Shown here in pieces: positions 20,012 through 54,015 of a stretch of DNA of 64,000 nt. A program made the position numbers and the translations under genes. The notes beneath the pieces are model-generated. The model searched no databases, was not told the DNA's origin, and was given only the letters and a program-made list of their open reading frames with translations. Origin of the DNA: Patellaria atrata CBS 101060 (taxonomy: Eukaryota); NCBI GenBank assembly GCA_010093705.1, contig MU006095.1:434001-498000 (forward strand), read 5' to 3'. Position 1 is the first letter of the stretch. Each line of letters opens with the position of its first letter.

Positions 20012-22120
20012 TCAATTGGTATAAAACTCTGCTTCTTTAATATTTTCAACATGGCGGCAGCCAGAGGTATTTGATTTCTCTCCTGCGAAAGCATCGAAGA
20101 ACGAGGCGAAGTCTAAGTCCTGTAAGACTTTACAGTACTGTAGATCATGTCCCTTTAAGCTTGGGACCGATTGTGCACCATTGTGCAAATGTTCCAGTGA
20201 GCGTGTTATGCAAAACTGGTGGAGATCCCTTACACTGGCTACGTTAAGGACTGCAAGCATTTCCAAAAATACACATCCTAAGGAGAATACATTTGCGGAT
20301 CGTCAGTGTCTTTGAAGACTGCCATCGGCGAGGACACTATGTACAACTTCTGGTGCTCCGTGCATCAGAGACGTACGTGCTGGGCTTTCAGTGGAGGTTG
20401 TCTGGCCTAGGGTAAATCTCGAATACGAGCTGAAGTCCGTAAAGTAAACACGGTCATCACGATGGATGATATTCGAGGGCTTGATATCTTGGTGTAAGAC
20501 CCCTTGCTCATGAATGTAGGCTAATCCAGATGACAGGCAGGCAAACCGCTCCTGAATCCAGCGGTATTCCGTGGACACTACGTCTCCAGTCTCAGGGTTT
20601 CTCAACTTTTCCCCTATATAATCTAAGACATCTTTAAGGTTGTCCTGGCCCACCAGAAACATGAGTATGGTGTAATGCTCTCTCCCGTTGCTGCTACGCT
20701 CCTCATAAAAAGCTATTGACCGAACGGTGTGTGCGTTTCCTAACTCTTGTACGGCTTTGCATTCTGCTTTTATGATCTCAACTCGCTGTTTCCTATTTGA
20801 ATATAATAGTCCAACGCGTTTCCGAACAAAGCTCTTACATGAGCTGTTTCCTGTGTGGACTTCTTCCACAACACCTAATGAGCCATGGTCTAGGGGGGTC
20901 AGCGTAGTGAGGAAGCCAGCCCAAGCGGGGGTGCCCCTTCCGTACAGATCCAATCCGAAGGTATTGAATATGTTATCCTTGTTATCCTGTACCTGGGACC
21001 TTGGCGGTTCGGCATCTACTACGCTTTCTGGACTCAGACCTTGCGCAGTTGAGTCTCCAGTGCATAGAAGGACAATTGATTCATCCTTAGCCATGCTTTT
21101 GCACACTGCATCATCTCTATGGTCCGACGAGGAAACAGATGGATTGTCATTTGTTTCTCCTGCATCTTTCGATGAATCACCCTCATCAGCTACATCTTTC
21201 CTATTAGCGGATCTTTAAGAGGGAAAACCTCCCCTCTTTATTCTCTTTCTCTCTTCCAGAATTTCGATACTTCTGAGTATATTGGCCTGACTTTATCCTT
21301 AGTGTAATCTGTCCACCCTCACGCGTTAATTGATGTTTCCTCGACAGGACGTTCTTGTATACGACGGCGACAGGGTCGACTAAATCCGGTGTTAACATGA
21401 AGTGATGTTTCTTCGATGCTGTAAGGCCACAAAGAACTGAGAGGATAGAAGGAGTTCGACAAAGAAGGAATTTTGATCGTGGCGATGGCCAGGCTGAAGA
21501 GGCTTCGGACTGGTAAGGCTGCCGCGAGGCAGTGCATATGCTAACCCTATCTCAGCCTTGTCGCTGTATCATGTATCTTCGGTCCATACGCTGTCCGCAA
21601 GTGAGCAGTAACGGTCCGTTACTTTGATGATGAAGATGGATCGCGGACGATCCGGTCGTTGTTAGGCGATCTACTAAGGTGGATACTAGTTTGGGCCTCG
21701 AGGAACATAGGTTTCGTCTCTATGACGACGTTGCACCATTTCTCGGTAGGCCGGACCGACTAAGTTGTGATGTTGCTCGGGTTCCATATTTCGAATAACC
21801 GGTTGGTCACGTTGCGGTCCAGTTGGCGTCTGCCGCGATGGCATCAATGGCTGTTTCGACAGACCAGACGGTGGTTGATTGTCGTGCGGAGCCATTAACT
21901 GAGGCGCTTGATGTGGATGCGGTGGACCCGGTGGAGGTTGCGGTGGTCCATACCCGATCGGTTGTTGTGGTCCACATCCGGTCGGTTGCTGTGGACCGTA
22001 TCCGGTCGGTTGTTATGGACCACAGCGCGGTCCATATCCGGCGGCCGGTTGACGAACGGGCGGTTGCCGTTGCTGTCCATATGTTGTAGGGAATGGAGCT
22101 GGTTGCATCGGATACTCATC
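20012..22120 (-). pseudogene. Disrupted Ser/Thr protein kinase gene with a Q/P-rich repetitive N-terminal region
   Basis: Kinase motifs LDHGSLGVVEEV, VRKRV, AEC, HQDIKPSNII, TDFSS, GAPE. An in-frame TGA at 20303-20305 is followed in frame by RSANVFSLGCVFLEML. The upstream Q/P-rich frame has TAA/TAG at apparent Gln positions. Confidence 0.75.
21940..22045 (-). repeat. ~24-nt tandem repeat encoding QQPTGYGP-like units
   Basis: Minus strand reads GYGPRCGP*QPTGYGPQQPTGCGPQQPIGYGPPQP. Confidence 0.75.
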
Positions 22121-34545: not shown

Positions 34546-36654
34546 TTACGCCGAAGCGTTTATTCTCTTCCTCTCAATCTTCAACACAGTCTCTACAAAC
34601 CGTTTGTTGAGCGTCTCTTTCTTCCGCGATGCCAATAGTTGTGCCGTCTTCAGGATGTTCTTGATTTGTCTGCCATTGAGTTCCACGGCGGCGAGTTCAT
34701 CGAGATCCTCGTCAGAGAACTCATTCGGCTGTGACGAGTTATTCAAGAAGTTCTTCCAGATCATGCGCCGTGAGCTGCTCGTGAGGTCGGGATACTCCAT
34801 AGAGACGTGGATGCGAGATTGGAAGGCAGTATCAATATTGTCGACGCGATTGGTAGTCAAGAACAAAATCCCCTCGTAATATTCCAATGTCCTCAAAAAG
34901 ATTGAGACGATCTTGTTGCGCTCTAGGTCATGGGTTGATCTGGCCTCGAGGAAGACGTCGCATTCGTCTAAGAGCAGGATTGCGTTCCAACGAGCGACAA
35001 GCTCAAGAACATTGTTCAATCCGGACTCCACTTCCCATGGACTGGAACCAAGATCACCGCTGCTAAGAGTATGGAGCGGGACTTTCATATTTTCAGCCAC
35101 AGCCTCTGCAGTAAGAGTCTTGCCTACACCTGGAGGACCGGAGAGAAGCATGATGATGCCTTTACCTTTTCCTTGGACGACGTCGTCGAAAGCTGCACGG
35201 TTCTCGATTTGACTCTCTGAGAATGCAAGAATGAGCTCTTTGTGTTCCTCATCCAGTACGAGGTTGTCAAAAGCGTTGGTGTTCCACTTAACAGGGCCGA
35301 CATAGTCAACGAAGAAGTCAAGCCATTGCTTCGTCTTTAGGGAATAGCCTCGGGTTCTGCTTCGGCAAAGTTGATAGTGATATGGCGAAAGCCTTGCCTT
35401 GGGACCATTCTTTTTCTTATACCATTCTTCGGCTCCCTTGCCCTCTTTTTCTCTGGAGTCTTGGTCGTGAGTCACAAAGGCTACTACGTCCTTCTTTCGG
35501 AACTGTTGAATACGTTCCAGATCTTTCGCATTCCAGTTAGTGACATAACGTGCTCGGTAAGGGCTGTATTTATTGAATGCGTTGATATCGACGACAATGC
35601 GACCGGATACCTGGACGGTCTGCTCATTGCCTTCGCGATCCCATGTGATTGCAGGCCCGGAGTAGCTCCTGTATTCATACCCAGCAAGCTGCTCAAATAC
35701 CTTACCGCGTTCAATCAGACTCTTCCTCACATTCTCTTGGTCAGGATGGAAAGCCAGTGGGAAAGCGTTGAGAGACACGATCTTCTTCGTACCGTAGAAC
35801 TCTTCGATGTCGATCTTCTCTCGACAGCGACCAAAGTTGCTTCCGTTGAAGTCGACACAATCGGAGAAAAGCCTTACAAAATTGCCGCACTGATTGGACA
35901 TATACTCGGAACGCTCTAGTTCGAACGCCGACAGGGGACCTCTGTGTTCCGCAACGATGACAGAACCAGGTTGGAAAACCATCCAAAGATGTTCGTAAGT
36001 AATGACGCCATGTTGGACGTAGTCTTCGAATGCTTTGATAGCATCTCCGATCTCATATCTGAGGGTGTCCATGAGAAGTTTGAGGTGTTCCCTGGTTGTC
36101 TCCTCGAGATCCCGTCTCTTCTCATATGCTAACAAATCTGCCCATCGGTGCACGAATGGTTTGAAAGGTGCCTCAAATATTAGTCTCTTCAATTCGCAGG
36201 CAACCCCAGGATAGTCCTTCAGTACTTCAGAGAGGACATCCTTCAACCGAGGGCTCTGAATCACTATTTCCGCTGCTTCTAGTCTCTTGCGGCTGTCTGG
36301 ACTTTTTGCGTTCCGTACAATGATGGCGAATTTCGCTGTTTCGTTGTTTTCGGCGGCTTCAGGAACATCTGTTGGTTCTTCAGCAACCCACGTCCAGTTC
36401 CCGTCTGCGTCTTTGGCTGATTTGTAAATATTCTTGATGGTGCTAATTGAACCATCTTCGATTTGACCGTCCGTGGTATCCAAAATTTCTTCGGCTTTCG
36501 ATTCACCATTCGTGGTAGTCTCATTGTTCTCAGCTTTGGATTCACCATTCAGGACGGTGCCATTGCTATCAGCTTTGGATTCGCCATTCGCATTGCTTTT
36601 GATGGAGAACCCACAAGCTTCAGCCACTGCGTTTGCGCCATTAGGGACCGCCAT
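34546..36654 (-). CDS. Fungal-type single-domain AAA+ ATPase of unknown function (TOB3/ATAD3B-annotated family)
   Basis: Walker A GPPGVGKTLTAE, Walker B LLLDECDVFL, FLRTLEYYEGILFLTTNR, AFQSRIH, NGRQIKN; three N-terminal NGESKA repeats; intronless, 702 aa. Confidence 0.9.
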   Translation of the reverse strand: MAVPNGANAVAEACGFSIKSNANGESKADSNGTVLNGESKAENNETTTNGESKAEEILDTTDGQIEDGSISTIKNIYKSAKDADGNWTWVAEEPTDVPEAAENNETAKFAIIVRNAKSPDSRKRLEAAEIVIQSPRLKDVLSEVLKDYPGVACELKRLIFEAPFKPFVHRWADLLAYEKRRDLEETTREHLKLLMDTLRYEIGDAIKAFEDYVQHGVITYEHLWMVFQPGSVIVAEHRGPLSAFELERSEYMSNQCGNFVRLFSDCVDFNGSNFGRCREKIDIEEFYGTKKIVSLNAFPLAFHPDQENVRKSLIERGKVFEQLAGYEYRSYSGPAITWDREGNEQTVQVSGRIVVDINAFNKYSPYRARYVTNWNAKDLERIQQFRKKDVVAFVTHDQDSREKEGKGAEEWYKKKNGPKARLSPYHYQLCRSRTRGYSLKTKQWLDFFVDYVGPVKWNTNAFDNLVLDEEHKELILAFSESQIENRAAFDDVVQGKGKGIIMLLSGPPGVGKTLTAEAVAENMKVPLHTLSSGDLGSSPWEVESGLNNVLELVARWNAILLLDECDVFLEARSTHDLERNKIVSIFLRTLEYYEGILFLTTNRVDNIDTAFQSRIHVSMEYPDLTSSSRRMIWKNFLNNSSQPNEFSDEDLDELAAVELNGRQIKNILKTAQLLASRKKETLNKRFVETVLKIERKRINASA

Positions 36655-37382
36655 TGTGATGGTATGAGCTGGTAATTGATTCTGAAGATGAAATTTGAAG
36701 TTTGAAGATATTCACTCTGCCTTTAAACGTGAAACTGCTTACCGTTTATATACCTCGAAGATTAGGCCAACGAGTCAAGACTACAGTGGGGAAACGAGCA
36801 TTGAATCCTGTTGCCTTGTGCGGTGTCCTGAAATCCTATTGATGATACACAGCCGCCTGGAATTTTCGAGGCTGCGATGAGTCTTCGTGTAGAAGATCAG
36901 CGCTATGCTTGCTCCGAATTGGCGTAGTTAAGAATCGTGGGTCAAGGCAACAGAATCCCTCCAAGTAATCGCAACCAGTCGCTTAGTAGTCGGTTCGACA
37001 CAAACAATATTACTATTACGCTTTTCCAGATTCCTTTATTTTACCTTATATATTTTATACCCTATCGTTTAACACTTGCATTTCCATAATTTTCATTTGT
37101 TTTGGCTTAACGAGAAATCGTTATCACTAGTATACTATATTAATGTAGTTCTAGAATATTAGGTAGAAGAATTGACATAATAATATACTTATTATGATAG
37201 TGGAATTCTCGAGTTCCAGTGGCTTCTCTCTGAGGAGGTTTATTGATAACATTGCGATTTGACATGCTAAGTATACTTGACCAGAAATATAACAAGGGCT
37301 GAGCATTGGGTCCCGGGTTAGGTTACATGACCTGCTGGGCATGGGTCATCGAAACATCAGATAGCCATAATGTCAATTTGTT

Positions 37383-39103
37383 TTAATCATCGACTTTCGG
37401 GTGAATACAACGCAGCGCATGAAGTAAGTGTCCTCTTCTCCTTCGGACGTAGCTTGTGTATAACCCGCCAGCCACATAGACGACTCCAAGTCTTAAGACA
37501 ACAGGCTACTTGAATTATTCCGGCCGCGAGAAGATGATAGTCATCGCATAAGATAGGAGCTCGAAGAGGTTCTGGAATGACGCTTCAAGTGACGAAAATG
37601 CGCCACGATGGTCTTCATCGACCTCCTGGACTACTACTTTAGACAACTTGACAGAAAGCGAAGAGTGAGCCCTTACAGCTTGGACAATAATTTGTGCACA
37701 CAGATCAAATCCCCAAAGCCCGATACGACTTAATACCACTCCAGCCACAAGTCCACTCGCTGCTAATACTCTTCTTCCTCCCTGATCCTCCCCGAAGAAC
37801 CAAATGACCCCTAGCGCTAACCAGGCTATTTGCCAGCACAAAAACCAAATACCTCCTCTTACTGGACCGATTTTCTTCGTCAATATTGACGCGATCCAGG
37901 TTGCACTTAACTCAAGGATTGTGCTGACTGTGCGAGTAATTCCCACATGAATGGAGTCATAACCGGAGAAGAGTAGGAAGGCAATCATTTGACCAGAAAA
38001 AGAGAGAATAGTGAAATATAGGACGGAGAGAGAAAACGAGGGAGAAAAGCAGAATGTCGGAAGTAAAACAACAGGGATCTCCATGGTATCAAAGCGGCGA
38101 ATTTCGAGTAGAGCCATACCTTTACACAGGAAATCCGTCCCCCTGTAGCGTATTGTGACGAAGGCATGCCGACATCTCTGCCAGAAGCTTCAGGATCAGT
38201 AATTGTCGGAGGGCGTTGTAAGGCTGGGACCATTTTAAAGACCTTGATAAAGTATTAGTAATATTCTTACGGATTAGGATGATATTTCATCACTCTTGTT
38301 ATGCAAATATACTCAATAGATATGGATAACGTATTCATGCCCAACGTAACCCATATGGCAGCGATGGGTGAAGCTCCATTGATCAAGGAAATAGCCAGGG
38401 GACCAAGAAGCTTACAGAATAGGTCGATGCGACGCATTCGAGCATTCATGATTCGACGGGCAGCTTTATTATCTTCAGCGATCACGACAACCTAAATTAC
38501 ATTAGCGATGATTAGGAAATATGAGAAGTGAAGGCTTACCCAGTCTCGTTCGACCGCGACGATATTTATCACCGCACACAACTTATCCATGCACGCAAGG
38601 ATGACAACCTAAGCAAATAAAGCTGTCCTTAGAATCTCGCGGGCGTTTGATTCCTACTCTAACATTCAAAAGATCACACAGGACGCAGCAACAGTCAATC
38701 GTGGCCCTATAATGGATACCCTCACGACAATTAACCGATTTCCTTGATCAATCCATGAACCCACAGCTGGGGAGAAAATAATTACGCGCCCATTCCGCGC
38801 AAGAGCGTATACGGACATGGGTAGCAGTGTAGCTGGATAAATGGACACGAGGAATAAGACAGCGCCGAACTCAAAGAGCCGAGAATTCCATGTTGATAGG
38901 AAGTGTGAGGTATAGAGGCGGACCTGGAGAGACCTTGGAATGATCACCGGCAGCTCCTCATATCGCTGCTCGTCGAAGCGTTCTCCATGGTTAGATGCTG
39001 TATGAGTACTAGATTCAGTAGCGAGTTGGATGCGTTGATTATGAGTTCCGTGTATACCGTAGGGTAAGGTTATAGGTGTAATTTCTTGGCCTGGGTGATT
39101 CAT
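37383..39103 (-). pseudogene. Ferroportin (SLC40A1/FPN1-like iron exporter) pseudogene
   Basis: Family motifs LYTSHFLSTWNSRLFEFGA, AVERDW, NARMRRIDLFCKLLGP, LYFTILSFSGQM, SRIGLWGFDL, QNLFELLSY. In-frame stops at 38666, 38654, 38609, 37515 and 37506, plus a frameshift near 38040. Confidence 0.88.
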
Positions 39104-39737
39104 TTCTCAACCGGGTTGTCATTTAAGGCTAGGATTCTCGTCTATGTATGGTTATTTAAATGGAAAGCGGCTTATAAATAACATTCAAGGTCGTTAAATA
39201 ATTTACTCTTATCGGGTTCTACTCCTTTACCAAGTACGGAGTTAGTGATGTTAGTTCTAAATAGTTATAACGCGTTAGAGCTAAAGTTAGAAACTTGCCG
39301 TTGCCTGATTTGGGAGACGAACATCTGCGCCCCGTATCACACAGAATATCAGCCACAAAATCATCTACTAACAACAAAGACTCTCGATTGGAAAATTGCT
39401 AAAACTAGGGGAGTTTCACCGCCATCATGTATGTTGTAGAAGAGGTTGAGTGTCTGAACCTTGACGTCAGATTCATCCCCCATCGCACTAATTCACCTGG
39501 AATTGCATATGCCAACCATCAGAACTTCTTTTGTTCCAATTCGCAGTTTGTAACGTGTTAGCGCTTTTTGTACCGTCGGTGTTCTTCGATCACTGTACGT
39601 TACTGTACAGATGAAGGCATAGTTCTATCATCAGTATCAATATTCTCTCAATCTTCTACGTCTCTGTACGGCTAAGGCAGACTCCTCTTTCCTCATAGCC
39701 ATACAGCAAGATAACCCTGACAAGGGAGGGGATACCG

Positions 39738-42099
39738 ATGGACGCCACTTCAGAGCCCCATTATCACGCACTGGGAGTCGACGAAATCCGCGTACTAAAG
39801 CTCCAACCCGGCCAAGAAGACGACAAAATAGTCGTACACCTGATCCACGTCCGTCTCTCCGACAATCCAGAATACGAAGCCCTTTCCTACGTCTGGAGAA
39901 ACAGCATCGAACCCGACCACGCGATCGACATGGAAGTAGAAGTCCAAGTCACTCCTCTAATGCCACATGCCGTGGACGACATGGAATGGATCAGAAACAA
40001 TGTGATGAAAATGAAGTTCCGCGAACTGGCTCATCATCCAACGCACTCGTTTCTGTACTATAGTCGCGGTGGAGAGAGATTTCCGGAGCGGATATCTTGC
40101 GACGGCTCGGATATTATGATCGGTGGCGAGTTGCACTTCGCGTTGAAGAACCTACGCCGTGCGACTAAGTCTCGGACATTGTGGGCCGATGCGTTATGCA
40201 TCAACCAAAGCGACCCCCTGGAAAGGGGGGAGCAAGTTAAACTGATGGCCAGTATATATGCGCGCGCAACGCAGGTTGTCATATGGTTAGGTGGTAGCTA
40301 TATGGAGGTAGAACATGCCGCAATGACGCTTTCTGGTATTCGGTTTCGACTGGCCTCGCACATTTTTCACCATGATAATAAACCTACGACAGCGCAGATG
40401 TACGAGTTGAGCCAGGATCCGGAATGGAAAGCGCAGCATTGGGATTCCATTGCTGAATTGATGAGGCGAAACTGGTTTGGAAGAGTAGGTGAACCTATTG
40501 CCCTTTTCTCTCCAAAGCTATTTCCAGTCTATTGTATGCAGAAATGAAGAGGAGGCCTATTTGGAAATAATAACAAGCGAAGTTCTGTACGAAAACAATT
40601 TTCGTATTATGGGATACTTGTACAGCAATCCTACGACAGCTGAGGAGTGTCGAGAGTGTCATACGAGCAGATTTGTCATTTGACGCTAAGCTAATCGCAC
40701 TCATAGGTATGGTGTCTCCAAGAAGCAGTAAATGCGAAGAAAGCTGTGATGCAGATAGGGTACGTATGAAGACAGGTTAAAGAACCATTTGCTAATTCAT
40801 ATTAGCGATAAAACAATAGAAATGGAGTCGCTGCTGGATACTATCTACAGACTCTATGTATTCGGGTTGGATACACCTCTTTGGTCCAAAGGTCGACCTA
40901 CGGGTTTACTTGCCGTACGCACAATATACGGACTCCGTGCCTCTGAGGAGAGCCAAAGACCGTCGATGTTAGAGCTACTACACCACACTCGAACGTTCAA
41001 GTGTACCTTCCCAAGCGATAAGTTCTACGGGCTCCTCAACCTAGTTTCAGATAATGAGACCAATGGGGTCGTGATCGATTATACCAAAGATCCGTCTGAG
41101 GTTTTCATCGATTTTGCCGTGCATGATATGTTACGGAAGAAGTATCCTGTTATATTGCACTTTTGCGTGAGGTCCAACGAGAAGTCTGAGCTAAACCTTC
41201 CATCATGGGTTCCTGACTGGACTCAGCATGTTTGGCAGGAGTCTGTAACCTATAATAAATATTTTAACCTGGGTACTTATAATGCATCGCGAGATAGAGC
41301 TCCACACTTTTCTTTCTCCGAAGACCGCAGGATACTATTCATCGAGGGCATAATCCTCGACATAATCGAAGAAGTAGAACTCCTCCGCGCCATCCCTCCC
41401 CGCGAAAGACCAAAAAACGTCTTCAGGGGAGACAAAGACAAACCGTTCTGGGACATCGACGCCCCGGAGACCGAAAAGCCCTGGCACATCCGCGACACCG
41501 ACAACAAGCCCTTCTGGGAATCTAGCCACGAGAGCTTCCTAGACGAATACCTCTCGAACCGGCGAACCTGGGTCAAAAACGCCATCTCGATCGCCTTCCC
41601 CGAGAAATCGTGTACGCCTGAGCAATATGAGGCACTCTGGCGAACGTTCCTCTGGGATCTCGCGGAACAGCGCGAACGGCCTGGTCCGGAGTACGAAGAG
41701 TATTTTTCCCTCTGGTTTCAGGATGTTAATAATAAGACGCACATTTCAGCAAATTTCAGAAAGGAAAAAGATGCGCCGGGCTTAGATCTGAGGAGGCTAC
41801 CGGGTGATGCTATCGAGGTGGATGAGGAGGGGAGGATGAGTCTGATGTTTGCCAAAGCGCATGAGAAATGCGATAACAGGAGATTCTATCGGACATCGGG
41901 CGGGAGATATGGGTGGGCTCCAGACACGACACGGAGCGGAGATCTAGTGGCTGTCCTCCATGGGCTTGAAGCACCGTTTATACTAAGAGCTGCTGAGGAT
42001 GGACGATATGTGATTGTGGGGGATGCGTATTTGCATGGGGTGATGTACGGGGCTGCTTTGGATATGGGACTTGAGATGCAGACGCTTGAGATCGTTTAG
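39738..42099 (+). CDS. Heterokaryon-incompatibility (HET, HET-6-like) domain protein, three exons
   Basis: IRVLKLQPG, YEALSYVW, LWADALCINQSD..ER..QV.LM..IY..A..V..WLG, WFGR|VWCLQEA, DKFYGLL, LPSWVPDW, RRFYRT..GRYG, GD.VAVL.G...PFILR, IVGDAYLHGVM.G; introns ~40486-40707 and ~40761-40806. Confidence 0.92.
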
Positions 42100-43143: not shown

Positions 43144-44373
43144 ATGAATATCGCAAAACGCAACGATGCGCTTCGTGTCAACGGTACGCTTCTTTTCTTC
43201 ATCTCTTCCACCATCCACAGCTAATTTTGATCGTCAGGCAACATGGTCAATGGCAAATCTGTCGACATCCACCAGACTGTCCGCGGCTCTGACTTCTACT
43301 GGGCCATTTGTGCTGTCATGGGTTTCTCAACCCTCGCCTTTTTGATCCTCGCGATGAAGAAGGCCCGCCCGGACCGCATCTTTCACTACATCACTGCCAG
43401 TGTGTGCATGATTGCGTTCATCACCTATTTCACCATGGCCGCCAATCTTGGTTGGACTCCCATCGATGTAGAGTTCCGTAGGAGCAGGCACACCGTTTCC
43501 GGAATCAACAGGGAGATCTTTTACGTCCGCTACATTGACTGGTGAGTTGGCTCGTAATCTCTTTTCCGCACTTTTGAAAAACTTTACCAAAAGACGCGTA
43601 AAACCCAGTTATTGATGACTAGAAGGTTCATTACTACTCCTTTGCTCCTCTCGAATCTCTTGCTCACTGCTGCCATGCCCTGGCCTACTATTCTTTGGGT
43701 GCTTCTCGTCGACGAGGTCATGATCGTCTGTGGACTCGTTGGTGCACTTACGCGTACACGCTATAAATGGGGATACTTCGCATTCGGTAAGTTCAAACTA
43801 GACATTTACTCTTACCTGCTTCTAATGACCCGCATTAACATTCCATAAGGCTGCGCTGCTCTCATGTATATCCTTTACCAGCTTGTTTGGGAAGCGCGTC
43901 GCCATGCCAACGCACTCGGTCGCGATGTTGGCCGTACCTTCTTGATCTGCGGCTCGTTGTTGTCATTCCTCTGGCTCTTATATCCGATCTCCTGGGGATT
44001 GTGCGAAGGTGGCAACTACATCGCTCCAGACTCTGAGGCTGTTTTCTACGGTGTCCTCGACTTCTTTGCTAAACCCATTTTCGGTGCTTTGCTTCTCTGG
44101 GGCCATCGCAACGTCGATCCCGCCCGTCTTGGCCTCCGCATTAGGGACTACGACGAGGATCCGGCGGTCCATGGCAGCTTAGGAGGCCCATATAACCGCG
44201 AGAAGGTTGCGCCTGGTGGTGTCCACAACGAAGTCAACAACAGTCTTGACAACAATGGGGTCCATAACGGTGTCCACAATAATGGAGTCTCCACTGGGTT
44301 CCACACCGGAGCTCAAGACGGCATCTTTCATGGAGCTAGGACTGGACACACTGGACTTGAGCCAGCAGTTTAG
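43144..44373 (+). CDS. Fungal type-1 rhodopsin, CarO/auxiliary ORP-like subgroup, retinal Lys retained, DTN motif
   Basis: Four exons give MNIAKRNDALRVNG...RGSDFYWAI...YFTMAANLGW...REIFYVRYIDW|FITTPLLLSNLLL...YKWGYF...LYPISWGLCEGGN...DSEAVFYGVLDFFAKPIFG; helix G carries DxxAK. Confidence 0.92.
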
Positions 44374-46062: not shown

Positions 46063-46259
46063 ATGGTCTAATCTACTTTCGACTTCCTCATTGACGACTC
46101 CTGTCTTGTTTCCATCCTCGTCATCTCCTTTCGAGAAGGAGTAATATCGTGTGGCCGACTACCATAATATCTCCACCTCGTGCGGACCGTGTAGAATAAC
46201 CAATCTTGCGCCGACACGAACCTCGAAAGTAAACCCACTCAACAAGCTCTTTTCACCGT

Positions 46260-47954
46260 ATGAGCATCGCATACACTCCACTCGTCGACATGGACTCTCA
46301 ACTTCCGTCGCCACCCGCACGGCGATACTCTCATGAAGCTCCCCAAGTCGACTTTTCTCAAGCGTCGCCAGAACAGGGATACTACAAACCACCGGTCTCG
46401 CACGGAGAGCAAGGCGTCTTCGTTCCACCGGGCCAATCCGGATACGAGTATAATAATGATAAATATGTCGTTCCGCAGCAGCAGCGAATACCGGGAGGAG
46501 AGGATAGTTACAAGATTGCGTATGGAGGGGATCATCAGCAGCAGGTATATGGAGGACCACCGGTTGCCGGAGGAATGGCACCCGGGGATATGGGGCCGGG
46601 AGGTGTAATGGCGGGTTCACAGCAGGGACAGAAAAAGAAGGGCTTCTGGACGAAGAGGAATAAGATTATCGTTGGAGTTGTTGTGGCGATTATAATTATT
46701 GCGGCAGCGGTGGGAGGAGGGGTTGGCGCGTCAGTTGGAGGTTCAGATTCAGAGTATGCCTCCACATTATCTGGCTTAACTACCCTCTTGTTTTCGCAGA
46801 TTACTGATTTTATGCCATCTAGTTCGTCATCAGATTCAAGCTCAGGGTCCGATTCGCGTCCTACTCGTACGGGGGGCAGCTCCCCCCAGAGTACTTCAAC
46901 CAATGCACCAAGTGCATGCAGAGACTCAATGTGTGGCGGCGTCATGAGCGCGGTCTCCTGGACCTCAGACCAACTCTTCGCCTTCGGCGTTACCACGGAC
47001 GGTCAACTCGTCTACAAAGCCGGCAACGGCCGTGTCTGGGACCGGGAGTTCAAAAATGCAGGGGCCGATTTTACAGCCACGGGCGCTCCACGGGTAACTT
47101 CCTCCCGAGACGGCAACCTAGAAGTCTTCATGATCGGGACTGAGGGCAGCGTATGGACGACATCCTATGCGGACGGGCAGTGGGAAGACGAATGGCTGAA
47201 CCTAGGAGGCACGTGGAATACTCCCCCCGGCGTCGTGGATCAAGGGACCTCGCAACTAGGCCTCTACGCCATCAACACAAACGGCGATATCTGCGATCGA
47301 TGGAGGAACAACACGAATACGACAGAGTGGGGAGGAACCTGGAATACAGTCGATAACGACTTGTACGGGGAACCAGTCGTCATCCACCTATCGGATAATA
47401 CCTTCTCCCTATTCGCCTACTGGGGCCAGAACCACCTCTATCACGACTATTACAACGGCACCGCGTGGGAAGGCTGGGACGATCTGGGCGAAATGTGGAA
47501 CAATACCCCCGCCGCGGCGTCCTGGGCGGAGAACAGACTCGACGTCGTCGCACTAGGCGAAGGCGGAAGTCTGTACCACAAGAGCTGGAACCGCAACAGC
47601 TGGACGGACACGTGGGAAGATCTCGGCGGCAGCTTCGAGAGCGAGCCCGTGCTCGTCGTCAGCGATAGCGATCGTCTGGATCTGTTTGCCCTCGGGGATG
47701 ACGATCAGTTGAGGCATAAGGCGCTCGATGGCCGGGATTGGCAGAGAGATTGGGATGTCATACCGAGCGGGAATATCACGTTTAATTCGGCGCCTGTGGC
47801 GGTTAGCGCGAGGAATCGGCGTGTTGATGTTTTTATTTTGGGCACGGAGAATCAGTTGCTGCATCGGAGTTTTGAGACGAACGATGATGAGGCGTGGACG
47901 GCGGAGGATGTTGAGTGGAGAGATCTTGGGGGGGAGTTTACGGGAAATTTTTAA
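46260..47954 (+). CDS. Type II membrane protein with C-terminal seven-repeat Trp-rich beta-propeller (PLL/PHL-like lectin fold predicted)
   Basis: P/Q/G/Y-rich N-terminus, basic KKKGFWTKRNK, TM IIVGVVVAIIIIAAAVGGGVG, S/T linker, then seven ~47-aa repeats (P.vvs....rLdvFa.G.dg.l.hk.w.g..W..W..LGG). Probable 69-nt in-frame intron 46754-46822 (GTATGC...CTGAT...TAG). Confidence 0.82.
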   Translation: MSIAYTPLVDMDSQLPSPPARRYSHEAPQVDFSQASPEQGYYKPPVSHGEQGVFVPPGQSGYEYNNDKYVVPQQQRIPGGEDSYKIAYGGDHQQQVYGGPPVAGGMAPGDMGPGGVMAGSQQGQKKKGFWTKRNKIIVGVVVAIIIIAAAVGGGVGASVGGSDSEYASTLSGLTTLLFSQITDFMPSSSSSDSSSGSDSRPTRTGGSSPQSTSTNAPSACRDSMCGGVMSAVSWTSDQLFAFGVTTDGQLVYKAGNGRVWDREFKNAGADFTATGAPRVTSSRDGNLEVFMIGTEGSVWTTSYADGQWEDEWLNLGGTWNTPPGVVDQGTSQLGLYAINTNGDICDRWRNNTNTTEWGGTWNTVDNDLYGEPVVIHLSDNTFSLFAYWGQNHLYHDYYNGTAWEGWDDLGEMWNNTPAAASWAENRLDVVALGEGGSLYHKSWNRNSWTDTWEDLGGSFESEPVLVVSDSDRLDLFALGDDDQLRHKALDGRDWQRDWDVIPSGNITFNSAPVAVSARNRRVDVFILGTENQLLHRSFETNDDEAWTAEDVEWRDLGGEFTGNF

Positions 47955-48768
47955 GGTTTCTTGACACCCGCTTTAGGTTGATGTGTAAGGTAATGATTTT
48001 CGCATCTTTTTTCTACGTAGCGATTTTCTTTTTTTCTTCTGCATTTGGACTTGGTAGTGTTTTGCATACCTTAGAGGAGTATGGGAAAATGTATGTACTC
48101 ATCCCCGTTTTGGAACTTACGTTTCTTTTGTTTTTATGCTAGGGTCCAATAGGGATTAGTTAGGGTATCTTATAGGCGGTGGATTACTGTCTGAGTATAT
48201 TTGGTACTACAATGCTCGCAAGGGTTATGTTTCCAGCCACACTTGCCTCGTTGGTGCAATGTTGGATGTTGGGTTTGTGTGGAAAGGTATATTACTCTAA
48301 TAAGTACTTCACGCTGGATTTCATTTCTATTCTTGGGTTGAGGTCTATAATTCTTGTTCAGCAGGTTTTCGTTCAAATCTTACCCAGTCCACACAACTAT
48401 CTTGGTCCCACGTCCACCTCATACATGATATTTCTCACGCACTATCTCTTGCATTGAAACCTCACCCTTACACATTACTCACTCGCCCAACCCGCCGTCA
48501 GACTCACACGTCACTCCACATCAATTTCTTCTCTCCCTCTTATATATCTTCCCTTCGCTTAACTCAATTCTTCCACTCTAGTTCAGAAGCGCTTCTTACA
48601 GGTCGGGGCGCCCAGGAATTCGACATTGTTCGTCTGATCCTAAAGAAGTCATTTCCGTATTGGGCTTGTAGGGAGACGCTGAAGAAGAGGTATATTGTGA
48701 CGTTCTAATCACAACTGTTGAAGATATCGGTTTTGTGTCTTTCTCGTTGGTTGGGGGTGTTGGGGGGG

Positions 48769-49598
48769 NNNNNNNNNNNNNNNNNNNNNNNNNNNNNNNN
48801 NNNNNNNNNNNNNNNNNNNNNNNNNNNNNNNNNNNNNNNNNNNNNNNNNNNNNNNNNNNNNNNNNNNNNNNNNNNNNNNNNNNNNNNNNNNNNNNNNNNN
48901 NNNNNNNNNNNNNNNNNNNNNNNNNNNNNNNNNNNNNNNNNNNNNNNNNNNNNNNNNNNNNNNNNNNNNNNNNNNNNNNNNNNNNNNNNNNNNNNNNNNN
49001 NNNNNNNNNNNNNNNNNNNNNNNNNNNNNNNNNNNNNNNNNNNNNNNNNNNNNNNNNNNNNNNNNNNNNNNNNNNNNNNNNNNNNNNNNNNNNNNNNNNN
49101 NNNNNNNNNNNNNNNNNNNNNNNNNNNNNNNNNNNNNNNNNNNNNNNNNNNNNNNNNNNNNNNNNNNNNNNNNNNNNNNNNNNNNNNNNNNNNNNNNNNN
49201 NNNNNNNNNNNNNNNNNNNNNNNNNNNNNNNNNNNNNNNNNNNNNNNNNNNNNNNNNNNNNNNNNNNNNNNNNNNNNNNNNNNNNNNNNNNNNNNNNNNN
49301 NNNNNNNNNNNNNNNNNNNNNNNNNNNNNNNNNNNNNNNNNNNNNNNNNNNNNNNNNNNNNNNNNNNNNNNNNNNNNNNNNNNNNNNNNNNNNNNNNNNN
49401 NNNNNNNNNNNNNNNNNNNNNNNNNNNNNNNNNNNNNNNNNNNNNNNNNNNNNNNNNNNNNNNNNNNNNNNNNNNNNNNNNNNNNNNNNNNNNNNNNNNN
49501 NNNNNNNNNNNNNNNNNNNNNNNNNNNNNNNNNNNNNNNNNNNNNNNNNNNNNNNNNNNNNNNNNNNNNNNNNNNNNNNNNNNNNNNNNNNNNNNNNN
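48769..49598. other. Assembly gap (run of N)
   Basis: ~830 Ns, preceded by a G-rich run; ORFs spanning it are artefacts. Confidence 0.99.
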
Positions 49599-50299
49599 GA
49601 CAGATAGTTGACAGATCCACCAAAGGACCCATACTTCAACATTACCCCTGGTCGCCAGTAGCACCAATACTCCAACAGCTCCACCATCTAACATGTTAGC
49701 TTGAGACGTTGTGTCAAACTGTATCAAAACAGATCTCTAACACAACATCTATCTGTGTTGTTTTATCTGTTTTCTTTGATTCATGCTCGTTGTCTTCGTT
49801 CTGTATACAAATAGTCCGCATCTCTCAATAGTAGCAAATCAAGCGATATATTCAGTGCACCTGCAGATCCAGTTTATCTAACATATTGCGAGACTTCTGA
49901 CGGTGGGAGATTATTCTCTTGGGAATTAGCTCAAGGACTTGAGTCAATATGAGGTTGAATAAACCTAATGTAAGACGGTCTACTGCCGTGATGATAGAGA
50001 TCGCTGTCAGTGGAGTAGATATCGTCGTCAATAGGAAGTTGAGATATGTAACGATTGTGGCATAACTAATCTCAGTCATCATTAGTGACCCCCGATATAC
50101 CTCACCATAAACCACCTCCCCCCTCACTTCTTCTAGCCAACCTTCTCTCCACCAGAAACAAAACTTCTCCAACCGTTGCAATCATTAAAGGTTTACCCCC
50201 GACGCTAACGAAATCTCGGATATGATAAATTGTGCTCCACAAGACCCCAAAACGCCGCCGCAAGACCAAATTCCAAGATCTCGATTTTACGGGATCTAG

Positions 50300-53200
50300 A
50301 ATCTTGATAGGAGAGCTATCCCTTAACGAGAAAGAAGACACTATGGAAAAAGGGGATCGGGAAGGTTTATATACCCCTATTCTCATAAGAGACACCCACG
50401 CATGAGGCCTTTGTAAGCCACGCATGATCTATTACCACAAGCCAACTGCACCGTCCCGCTCTGCAAGTCCGCCTACACTCCATAAAGACCGGGTTACGAG
50501 CACCCGACATAAGACCCCTATTCACTGATTTTGCTACTTGGCTGCCCTGATGAAAGAAGTTTGTGCATGACACCGTGAGTAAAGGGGTATTTAAGCCGGG
50601 CTCACTTCTCTCAGTCTCTTTCCACTGAACTAAAAGCTCCATATGAGGAGAGGCAAAGAAGAGTGGTAAAGGCCACTCGGAAGATATGTGTATTCAATTT
50701 TGCGTTGCGGCATTGTGAACAAGCACCGAACCCCAAAGCATTCAGCGAGACAAGCATTAAAATCGCATGACTTAACAAGAAATGTCTCCATGTCCTTCTC
50801 GTTGATTGTATACCGGAGGAAGCGCTGCCGATTGTTGAAGTCAGTCCAGTACGCCAAAACACCACGACAAACGGTCATGTATTCTTACACGAACAGTTGC
50901 CCCTTAATTACTGCTTCCCACCTACTTCCCAGAAGAACATCACATCCAGAAGGCAACGCACCATACATGGGACTTCAACCAGTCATCAGTTAGGGGGTGT
51001 TGTCAAACAGTTTGGTCTGTATTATATTATACCCAAAGCACTACAGTTGCACACCACGGGTTGAGCCTTGCCATCGTACTGGTCAGCTTCTTTTTTGTCT
51101 TTTTCTTTTCTTTTTCTTCACTTACATTAGCAATCATTAGGTGTGGAAATGTACATTTCTTATTTATCTATAGATTTGAGTTCAGAATAGAATCCTGTTC
51201 GACTTATCGTAGGGGAAATAGGAAGTCTAACAAGTAAGACGTATCCGTAAAGAAGGTGGATGGCGTCGATGTCGGTGACATAAACGATGATAGAGATTAT
51301 CAGAGCATTAACCAGGTAGTTATCATTATCATTGAGGATGACGAGTTCGGGGGAGATCAGTCTTTATCATGAAGTCTACCAGTATGGCCCTCGGAAAACA
51401 CACCTAACCATGGTTCCGTTGACGAAGACTCTGTACCATTTTCCCAAAATTCAGAACGAATTGCTTGACTACCAGTAAGCTCTTCGTCATTGCTTCTCCG
51501 GTACTCCGAGACAGAGGCCCAAGAAGTAGAGTTGAGACAAATCTCATGCCGACAACGCAGTCTAACGCTGGAATTGATCTCACGGCCACAATAGTCCTCA
51601 GGAAATCGTATTACCGCAGCGAGTTTCAGGACCAAGACTGATTTAAGGAAAAAAAGGCAGGGGGCGGCGACGGTTATATACCTCCATCACTCCGCCCAGA
51701 CGCGCACAAGGGGTTAGATGTCGCGTATGCCTAGCATCACGCATTTATGTCAATATTGTAACAGGCTAGAGCCTAGTGGTATGAGCGCGCCCTGCATCCG
51801 AAGATCAGCCAGTAATATTTTCCTCAAACCTGCCTTCAGACTCTTCTCTTCTTCTTTATCTTGATTGTAGATAGCATCTGGACTAGATAGTTGGAACACA
51901 ATTACTAGAGGCCGCTCACAAATATCTGTAGGTCTGACATGTCACTATCAAAGCCGAGTAAGCAAATATGTCATCTTAAGGTAACCTGGAATTAAACAAC
52001 TAGTGGATGGGTATATAACCTTACCTCTATGCCCTTACCTCTCTCTTTCCCCCCTTAAGCTTGAGAGCCGTGGACTAGAGTCGCCTAAAACAATCATCAA
52101 AATCCACTTGGGTGTGGTTGCTGAACTCCAAATGTATCGGCTGTTACGTTTAGGGTTTCTATGAAAGTAGCCATAGATTTCCTTTTAGGGGGAAATTAAA
52201 ACTAAAGACATCAGTCACACCTCATGACTTATGTCCCATTCGTAACTGCAGGTACAAACAAAATCCCTTCGCCAGAGATGCCCATCATAAGCGCTCAAAC
52301 AGTGGGAAATTTCAATTCTGGCGGCAATACCTGAGTGGTAATTTTCCTTTGTCATATTTCCTTCAGTCAATTTCTTATAGTCGTCAGTTTGAGCCCCAGC
52401 TCCGACAGAATATAAATTTAAATGCGTTCGCCGGGTTAGCTTTCCCTCTACGGAGGTTTTCTTTTGCCATTTTTTTTTTCTAATCCTTAAAGGTTCTGTC
52501 AGGTGTGAGAGGAAGTGATGGGCAAGGACATAAGAAAATGATCCGATAGACACGTATGGCGGCGATGATATACATCGCCGTGTCTTTTCGATCTTCATCT
52601 TTACCAAAAGGAGGGATCAATTTGATTTTATTATTGCTCACCAAGACGCACCTCATCATCAATCCATCGATATAACCTCCCTACAAGGTATAGCTGAAGC
52701 GACATACCGAGCCCTTAAGGTCTAATCAAATGTTGAGCCGCCTCTCCAATAGGGGACGTCCAGAACGCTCAAAATGATTTGGTCATACCCACTCGAGGTA
52801 GCCAAAAATCGCAGGGCTTAATCCTTATGATACCCCAGAACAACAAAGGCGACTGTACGAAGGAAAAAAAAGAAAATTGCAGACAAAGTAGGAGAGGTTT
52901 ATATACCTGTCTCCCTCGACTGTAGCACATGTCCAGTAAGCAGCGTCGACATCTGCACGTCTGACTAGGTTTTGTCAAAATCGGGTCAGATGGGCATGAC
53001 GTGTTAGGGATGCTATGGAATAATGGATCGGTGGAGGGATATTTAAATCGAACTTGGTCCTCTCTCTCTTGGATCTCCAACAACTTTCCCGAGCGGGACT
53101 AAGGCTTTTGACAACACGGTGGATATACATTGGTGCGGTGGTGTGTTCCAGGGTCGTTGGGCCCAAATATCCAAATTGTGGTTTGGGTGTGGAAGCAAGC

Positions 53201-53775
53201 ACAAGAGCTCTAGCAGCTTGCTCTCGGTGGCTCTGTATCAGGAGGCTGACCGCGCTGGTGAGGATAATGACTATCATTATGGCTGGGACCCTTGTAGATG
53301 ATTGTCTCCATCGATATGAATATAAGTTCAAGGCGTACAGTTTTTTCTCCTCACCATCGCTCCCCGAACATTCATCTCAACATCACTTTCAAAGACTACC
53401 TCTACGGGAGACATAGAGCCCTCGTGCTTTAACCCTTGATGATATATGTTGGTGCCCCAATGACCTATAAGTAGGGAAGCCACCACAATCTTCGAGTAGT
53501 CGAGTCCCTTAACCCCCAATGATATCTTCTATTTCTCCAATGACCTATAAGTAGGAAAGCCACCAAAATCGTCCAGGAGTTGAGTCCTCACCGGGCACCA
53601 AATGAATATCTTCCTATGAAAAGAGCGTCCGAATCGCTCAATGTTCAAAGTTCCCGTCAGACGTGAGACCCTATTGCTTGAAGAAAGGAAAGAATAGGAG
53701 ATAGGAAGCTGGGAGGTTTTATATACCTCTATTGTACCGGCCCTACGTATGATTAGTAAGCTAAACATGATCGAC
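50300..53775 (-). repeat. Dispersed family of degenerate TATA + pyrimidine-tract modules (at least three similar copies)
   Basis: Copies at ~50300-50430, ~52850-52955 and ~53670-53775 share GCTTAC...CAT...GGTATATAAA(A)CCT followed by a C/T tract; copies 1 and 3 also share GATCATG and AATAGRGG. Confidence 0.6.
53431..53590. repeat. 80-bp tandem duplication (two copies plus a trace of a third)
   Basis: Copies start at 53431 and 53511; the core CCAATGACCTATAAGTAGGRAAGCCACCAMAATC is shared with two mismatches. Confidence 0.9.
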
Positions 53776-54015
53776 TCGCATGCGTCCAGACCGCCACCTT
53801 CCTGTCCGTACAGCTGACTTTATCCTTGCCGAAATTTAGAGCAGGCGGACTTCATGACGTCGAGAAAGAATTGCTGTATCGGTATGTAATTCCATTCTTT
53901 GACCTTACAATCGTACATTACGGCCCTAATCGCTTGTCTAAGGCACCACTAGAATCGACATATTTTCGTACGCTGCTAGGGGAAAACAATTACCTAAATA
54001 ACTTCACATTCCACC

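Follow-up and report, generated by a model that had tools for sequence, protein, structure and literature searches.

The rhodopsin gene of Patellaria atrata CBS 101060 analyzed here appears to encode a CarO-like rhodopsin whose cytoplasmic uptake site has been dismantled and whose retinal pocket and extracellular half are intact. By analogy with characterized proteins, the explanation that we favor, with a confidence of about one half, is that the product would be a retinal-binding, donor-less, slow and conditional pump under partial constraint. In this lineage, fast pumping would no longer be selected, and a folded retinal-binding protein still would be. The gene lies in a stretch of 64,000 nucleotides of contig MU006095.1 (positions 434,001 to 498,000), which was analyzed as a whole and is called the window; all coordinates below are those of the window, and all parts of the gene are on its + strand. 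The gene has four exons (43144..44373) and encodes a product of 342 amino acids, and the spliced product is 100% identical to a database protein (P0001) whose source is named as Patellaria atrata CBS 101060. Exon 1 carries the start codon (43144..43183), exon 2 encodes helices A and B and the start of helix C (43238..43541; PF01036, E 1.6e-9), exon 3 the remainder of helix C and helix D (43626..43786), and exon 4 helices E-G, the tail and the stop (43850..44373); PF01036 was matched by all three coding exons tested. Intron 2 (43542..43625, 84 nt) splits the Trp115 codon, and intron 3 (43787..43849) ends in AAG.

The residue register was taken from an alignment to bacteriorhodopsin (BR, 4xxj) and the Leptosphaeria rhodopsin LR (7bmh), of which the residue numbers D150 and K270 come from an excerpt of PMC8245419. 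In this register Asn125 falls on BR D96 and LR D150, and Lys243 falls on BR K216 and LR K270. Asp114 (GAC, 43537..43539) corresponds to the proton acceptor BR D85, Thr118 keeps BR T89, and Ser124-Asn125 (TCG AAT, 43651..43656) corresponds to BR L95-D96, with Asn in the donor's place. The DTN motif (BR positions 85, 89 and 96) that an earlier note on this DNA had reported thus holds, with the codons given there. Its claim that the Schiff-base lysine, the D212 and D115 equivalents and both release glutamates are intact was likewise borne out: Asp239 (BR D212), Ala242 (BR A215) and the Schiff-base Lys243 (AAA 44071-44073) lie at 44059..44073, Asp144-Glu145 (BR D115-G116) at 43711..43716, and Glu221 and Glu231 of the proton-release group (BR E194 and E204) at 44005..44037. 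Thr66 (43393..43395; BR T46), the helix B partner of the donor, is also kept. In the AlphaFold2 model (mean pLDDT 87.7) the protein has seven helices, and its closest structures are CsR 6gyh (rmsd 1.5 A) and LR 7bmh. The seven-helix bacteriorhodopsin fold, the PF01036 match and Lys243 make the protein a type 1 rhodopsin, and the presence of Lys243 separates it from the opsin-related proteins of the Hsp30/Yro2 type, in which the Schiff-base lysine is absent.

It is extremely improbable that a sequencing or assembly error produced the Asn codon. Contigs from both public runs (2/2), at a depth of ~300-445, contain no letter differing from the window and agree with AAT, and the second donor-site change 300 bases off goes beyond one miscall; the agreement has to be read with the fact that both runs represent one sample, which is probably the source of this DNA and of the assembly, and that contigs drop rare variants. 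Neither run, both being probably of DNA, contains splice joints. RIP was considered as a cause of the change and rejected. Asn125 (AAT) is preceded by TCG, so that the mutated G follows G and not T, and the RIP indices of the gene are ordinary (0.67 and 1.20), in agreement with the earlier view that the implied GAT-to-AAT change does not result from RIP.

The CarO-like identity proposed at the outset is supported both by the tree and by a diagnostic residue. In quick trees the Patellaria protein nests among Dothideomycete DTD orthologues, in a group of 23-25 rows that includes Fusarium rows named carO (SH-aLRT 98 and 93); it matches named carO with ~60-67% identity over exon 2, and its best orthologues are 72-73% identical. 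Glu or Trp at BR G116 defines the CarO-like (auxiliary ORP-like) proteins (PMC4295100, excerpt), and E145 occupies this position. Judged from tree and residues, the protein was inherited vertically as a CarO-like (auxiliary ORP-like) orthologue, and its change is specific to the lineage or the strain. The P0001 cluster has one member, and only one strain is known to carry N96 in this gene. In the donor column of the first 120 homologues listed, 116 have Asp and 3 a gap, and the Patellaria protein alone has Asn. Fusarium fujikuroi CarO, ApOps1/2 and PhaeoRD2 belong to the same clade and have the same type of tail, and the Patellaria protein shares with the CarO-like pumps D85, T89, Glu at G116, E194/E204, D212 and K216; it differs from them by Asn for the donor Asp, Leu for T178, Ser for L95 and the absence of car neighbors. 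The canonical DTD fast pumps (BR, LR and CarO) likewise share the acceptor D85, D212 and the release group, but the carboxylate donor that they have is missing here (N125).

The replacement of the donor is not the only change in the uptake site. The Patellaria protein has Leu206 (TTG, 43960..43962) at the position of BR T178, which lies in helix F on the cytoplasmic side. Of 155 close orthologues, 154 have Thr there, and no Thr codon can be reached from TTG with fewer than 2 base changes. Helix C was readable in 193 of the 197 homologues compared, and none but the Patellaria protein has Ser at BR 95 (Ser124). Thus, T206L and S124 are further departures besides N96 that the first reading overlooked. 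Its statement that the gene has no other lesions applies to the annotated frame, which is intact, but not to T206L, S124 and a stop-giving first acceptor in intron 2. Researchers have found that the Thr equivalent to BR T178 lies near a conserved water and influences pumping, that ascomycete rhodopsins rarely deviate from it, and that all Ustilago maydis rhodopsins carry Leu there, two of which pump (PMC6467936, excerpt). The finding that Leu178 alone is compatible with pumping, as in CsR, Acetabularia ARI/ARII (by alignment) and the U. maydis pumps, was counted against our explanation. Within the retinal pocket, 18 of the 19 listed positions carry the commonest residue of the 155 close orthologues, and the exception is T178.

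In the mechanism that we propose, Lys243 would bind all-trans retinal, upon illumination Asp114 would receive the proton of the Schiff base, and proton release would proceed via Glu221/Glu231. As an internal donor is missing and the cytoplasmic channel is more hydrophobic, the proton that reloads the Schiff base would have to come from the cytosol; the M state would be long-lived at neutral pH and turnover low, and acid or weak organic acids would accelerate the cycle. A slow, pH- and weak-acid-dependent photocycle is what would best be expected because of the behavior of two proteins. The first is engineered bacteriorhodopsin D96N, which has the identical substitution at the identical position, while the Patellaria case is natural and adds T178L and L95S. 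The second is UmRh1 (UmOps1) of U. maydis, a CarO-like pump that shares Leu178; it differs in being a DTE protein with a carboxylate, Glu129, at the donor site, in its basidiomycete origin, and in having been measured, the Patellaria protein being known from sequence. The M lifetime of UmRh1 follows the proton concentration like that of BR D96N, with reprotonation directly from the bulk; indole-acetic acid (IAA) speeds its M decay, UmRh1 still pumps, and BR D96 variants are rescued by weak acids (PMC8913941, excerpt). Weak-acid stimulation is not special to DTN proteins, as it is described as a general CarO-like trait known in DTD and DTE pumps (PMC6467936, excerpt).

We also considered that the protein may be an efficient pump in vivo, with direct uptake or ambient weak acids substituting for the donor, and we judge this very unlikely. 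Acetate lifts CarO and UmOps1 currents many-fold (PMC6467936, excerpt), the release group of the Patellaria protein is intact, and bacterial DTG/DTS pumps such as PspR are outward pumps that function with no D96-type donor residue. However, in the DTG pumps, which work without a donor, the cytoplasmic cavity is hydrophilic and lined with His, and these pumps became two to four times as active when Asp or Glu was added (PMC8927995, excerpt). The PspR-type pumps have His at BR T46 and a polar cavity, whereas the Patellaria protein has T66 there, and T206L would make its channel more hydrophobic. A further precedent is UmOps3 (DTS), which is, like the Patellaria protein, a natural CarO-like protein without a carboxylate donor that keeps the Lys and has Leu178, differing in having Ser instead of Asn at the donor site and in its separate origin. 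UmOps3 is non-electrogenic, shows no current, is probably sensory and is expressed in planta (PMC6467936, excerpt). The lack of current in this one tested donor-less fungal relative counts against a slow pump.

The earlier note had proposed a survey of fungal rhodopsins for a DTN clade. Wider protein searches gave 418 proteins among the matches listed (the best 120 or 150 per search), of which 349 had a clean helix C; of these 349, 243 had K216 aligned, with 189 DTD, 20 DTE, 14 DTN, 10 DTT and 10 others. On a tree of 250 rows with the two trait columns excluded, Asn versus Asp at the donor site needs 5 changes. Thus, DTN is not unique and, on this tree, arose about five times among fungal opsins. 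The survey also revealed one conserved DTN clade, but the Patellaria gene lies outside it. A protein search with residues 106-146, designed to bring DTN proteins to the top, found no other DTN among the best 120 of 466 matches and missed P0360, so that this survey is incomplete. When a metagenome collection was scanned with a degenerate DNA pattern encoding helix C with Asn, 26 matches were obtained, 0/26 of them in a rhodopsin; the pattern has low sensitivity and is blind to proteins without the second Thr, such as the conserved DTN clade. In a full-text literature search, with subscription papers mostly outside its coverage, no paper combining 'DTN motif' with rhodopsin was found, nor did a search pairing Patellaria with rhodopsin find anything; title listings contained none on DTN fungal opsins, and residues of this type may already be visible in figures or supplementary alignments. 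Fungal rhodopsins that lack the donor are known as a kind, to which the Patellaria protein would add a DTN variant with loss of T178. Other donor-less fungal opsins that keep K216 have the motifs DTT, DTS (smut fungi, UmOps3-like), DTA, DTL, DTM and DTI (P0222, P0346-P0351, P0233, P0236, P0221, P0395, P0207 and P0209).

The loss of the donor and the loss of T178 seem, from the alignments, to go together, as though the donor site changed as a unit. In the set with K216 and D85 (n=244), 172 of 187 DTD proteins have Thr at BR178, and none of the 14 DTN proteins does; their residue is Leu, Ile, Val or Met. Kin share residues, so that this table overstates the evidence. A natural pair offers a closer view. 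P0360 and P0420 (99% alike) are CarO-like DTN proteins with Ile178, and the third member of their cluster, P0419 (93% identical to P0360), is DTD with Thr178, as in the three outgroup rows of the branch; P0360, P0420 and P0419 all have Thr at BR A215. P0360 and P0419 differ at 14 core positions, including T46S, D96N and T178I. A clade of P0001 and P0360 was rejected (AU p 0.003), indicating independent origins. On the P0360 branch, two or three near-invariant columns changed besides D96N, and the chance of hitting 178 there is ~2-3 in 100 by arithmetic, the site having been picked beforehand from the Patellaria protein. An independent-pairs test, which is underpowered, gave 4 pairs with a mean of 2.6 changing the same way and 0 the opposite way (median p 0.25). 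The coupling is compatible alike with relaxed selection on the whole uptake site and with directional change.

The conserved DTN clade consists of nine clusters with 49-59% identity to P0260, with named members from Paecilomyces variotii, Paecilomyces lecythidis, Penicillium psychrosexuale, Penicillium roqueforti, Xylogone sp. and Scytalidium lignicola (P0260, P0352-P0358, P0242, P0421, P0423 and P0425-P0427). D85, T89, N96, D212 and K216 are present in 14/14 sequences checked. The clade lacks D115 and T90 and has Phe/Tyr at M118, Phe/Leu/Tyr at G122 and Thr/Ser at A215, whereas the Patellaria protein keeps D115, M118, G122 and A215 and is excluded from the clade, which has 100% support and a long stem. 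The retinal pocket of the clade may be blocked, as its sequences suggest. Because the clade is conserved, N96 can persist over long times. Its distribution is patchy across two fungal classes, no description of it was found in the literature searched, and the ESM Atlas queried with P0260 returned generic PF01036 clusters only. In SRII, the signaling residue is a Thr located where BR has A215 (PMC3274258, excerpt). On this basis we speculate, though we would not expect it to prove right, that CarO-like pumps repeatedly became donor-less photoreceptors with a long M state through coupled D96N and a hydrophobic residue at 178 (sometimes with T46S). The Patellaria protein would then be one natural, pocket-intact case of such a switch from pump to sensor, and the Penicillium/Paecilomyces/Xylogone/Scytalidium DTN family with its SRII-like Thr/Ser215 an ancient end point.

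The same observations bear on whether the gene is simply decaying, that is, whether the light function was lost, perhaps with the car genes, and the gene is on its way to becoming a pseudogene or to encoding an opsin-related protein without retinal, in which N96 is merely tolerated. We regard this as possible but rather unlikely. Of 89 near-invariant columns, 6 are changed in the Patellaria protein, where the mean is 0.94, and only 5 of 145 DTD orthologues have 6 or more such changes. The count for the Patellaria protein is inflated because it is the sole sampled member of its order on a long unbroken branch. This excess would also fit general relaxation. Intron 2 lacks the CTRAY branch motif, and its 3' end is a tandem acceptor (TAG 43620-43622 / AAG 43623-43625). 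The proximal TAG would give an in-frame TGA at codon 115 and intron retention a stop at codon 115-116, so the annotated protein requires the distal AAG, the sole stop-free option as read from the DNA. Intron 2 may therefore be spliced to a premature stop, which was counted against our explanation. N96 is also found in Lys-less opsin-related proteins (motifs GSN, AAN, GAN and YSN), the conserved DTN clade is bulky at BR M118 and G122, the other DTN proteins are mostly on long branches, and car genes are absent nearby. Nevertheless, the annotated model has no frameshift and no in-frame stop, the pocket and K216 are intact, and the fourfold-site pyrimidine share of 0.82 is the strongest codon bias among 15 coding stretches measured in the window (HRR25, for comparison, has 0.77 and 0.73), which argues against a long-dead gene. 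A Thr-to-Leu change requiring at least 2 substitutions, next to an unchanged pocket, suggests that constraint was lost partly and not totally.

The absence of car neighbors deserves a separate comment. Pfam scans covered 249 ORFs of at least 75 aa across the window and, in three stretches flanking the gene, 89 ORFs of 40-74 aa, and they detected no domain of the carRA, carB or carX products (phytoene synthase, desaturase and carotenoid oxygenase), with 830 N at 48769-49598, an assembly gap 4.4 kb downstream of the rhodopsin gene, remaining unread. This agrees with the earlier statement that the window contains no such neighbors. The CarO-like gene was found clustered with car genes in 8/11 species (PMC5796164, excerpt), an arrangement that is usual and not universal, and a location outside a car cluster is not rare.

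The earlier note had preferred an adaptive sensor, in which donor loss was selected for a long-lived signaling state that is relayed via a partner. We consider this distinctly unlikely, although part of the idea stands: a donor-less CarO-like protein with a slow, pH- and weak-acid-dependent cycle is also what the analogy with BR D96N and UmRh1 would lead us to expect. A long-lived signaling state has already been proposed for NOP-1 and UmOps3, UmOps3 is expressed in planta in spite of being non-electrogenic, CarO-like proteins are presumed to bind transducers (PMC4295100, excerpt), and Asn seems to have replaced Asp about five times, with the donor-site partners co-changing in two CarO-like lineages. 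Neurospora NOP-1 and Fusarium OpsA (DTE, slow, sensory) are possible functional analogues with a slow cycle and little pumping, but they belong to a different clade; NOP-1 has Gly at E194 (PMC6467936, excerpt), whereas the Patellaria protein is DTN and keeps the Glu (E221). Against a sensor, Ala is kept at BR 215 in place of the Thr linked to SRII signaling, no transducer is known for fungal rhodopsins according to an excerpt of PMC10056346, no candidate partner was seen among the neighbor genes, and the change is known from one strain only.

The part of the sensor idea that did not stand is the H/N/G-rich low-complexity cytosolic tail (44152..44370), which the AlphaFold2 model predicts to be disordered (pLDDT ~50). 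The tail comprises 86 residues from position 257, against a family median of 53, and 13 of 163 proteins have an equally long one. NG-V/H/A/T units, at least 2 per tail, are found in 44 of 84 close orthologues, and the H/N/G share of the Patellaria tail ranks 10th of 84. A signaling module was therefore rejected, and the tail is regarded as a longer version of the common family tail.

Sequence by itself does not separate a sensor, a slow pump and decay. The natural pair P0360/P0419, as well as the Patellaria protein and its N125D and L206T revertants, makes the transition from pump to sensor directly testable. The same pairs bear on the site of weak-acid action: the M decay of UmRh1 points to uptake, whereas release has been proposed for UmOps1. 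A single Asn in one strain is of less interest than the coupled changes by which the uptake site seems to have been lost repeatedly, and than the test pairs at hand; if the gene were merely decaying, it would be an unremarkable case of lost pumping in a fungal opsin.

The surroundings of the gene provided some further observations. Upstream, a HET-domain gene adjoins the rhodopsin gene, and before it lie a ferroportin gene and a DUF7025/AAA ATPase gene (39699-42099, +, and 34549-39106, -). No Pfam match was obtained at ~48000-54000 of the window. On the - strand, a divergent protein-kinase-domain frame at 20306-21214 is without a clear start nearby and may be a fragment. Downstream, a frame of 573 aa (46233-47954, +) encodes one hydrophobic segment, a Ser-rich linker and Trp-rich repeats with a weak DUF346 match, and its product may resemble a membrane-anchored, beta-propeller lectin-like protein.
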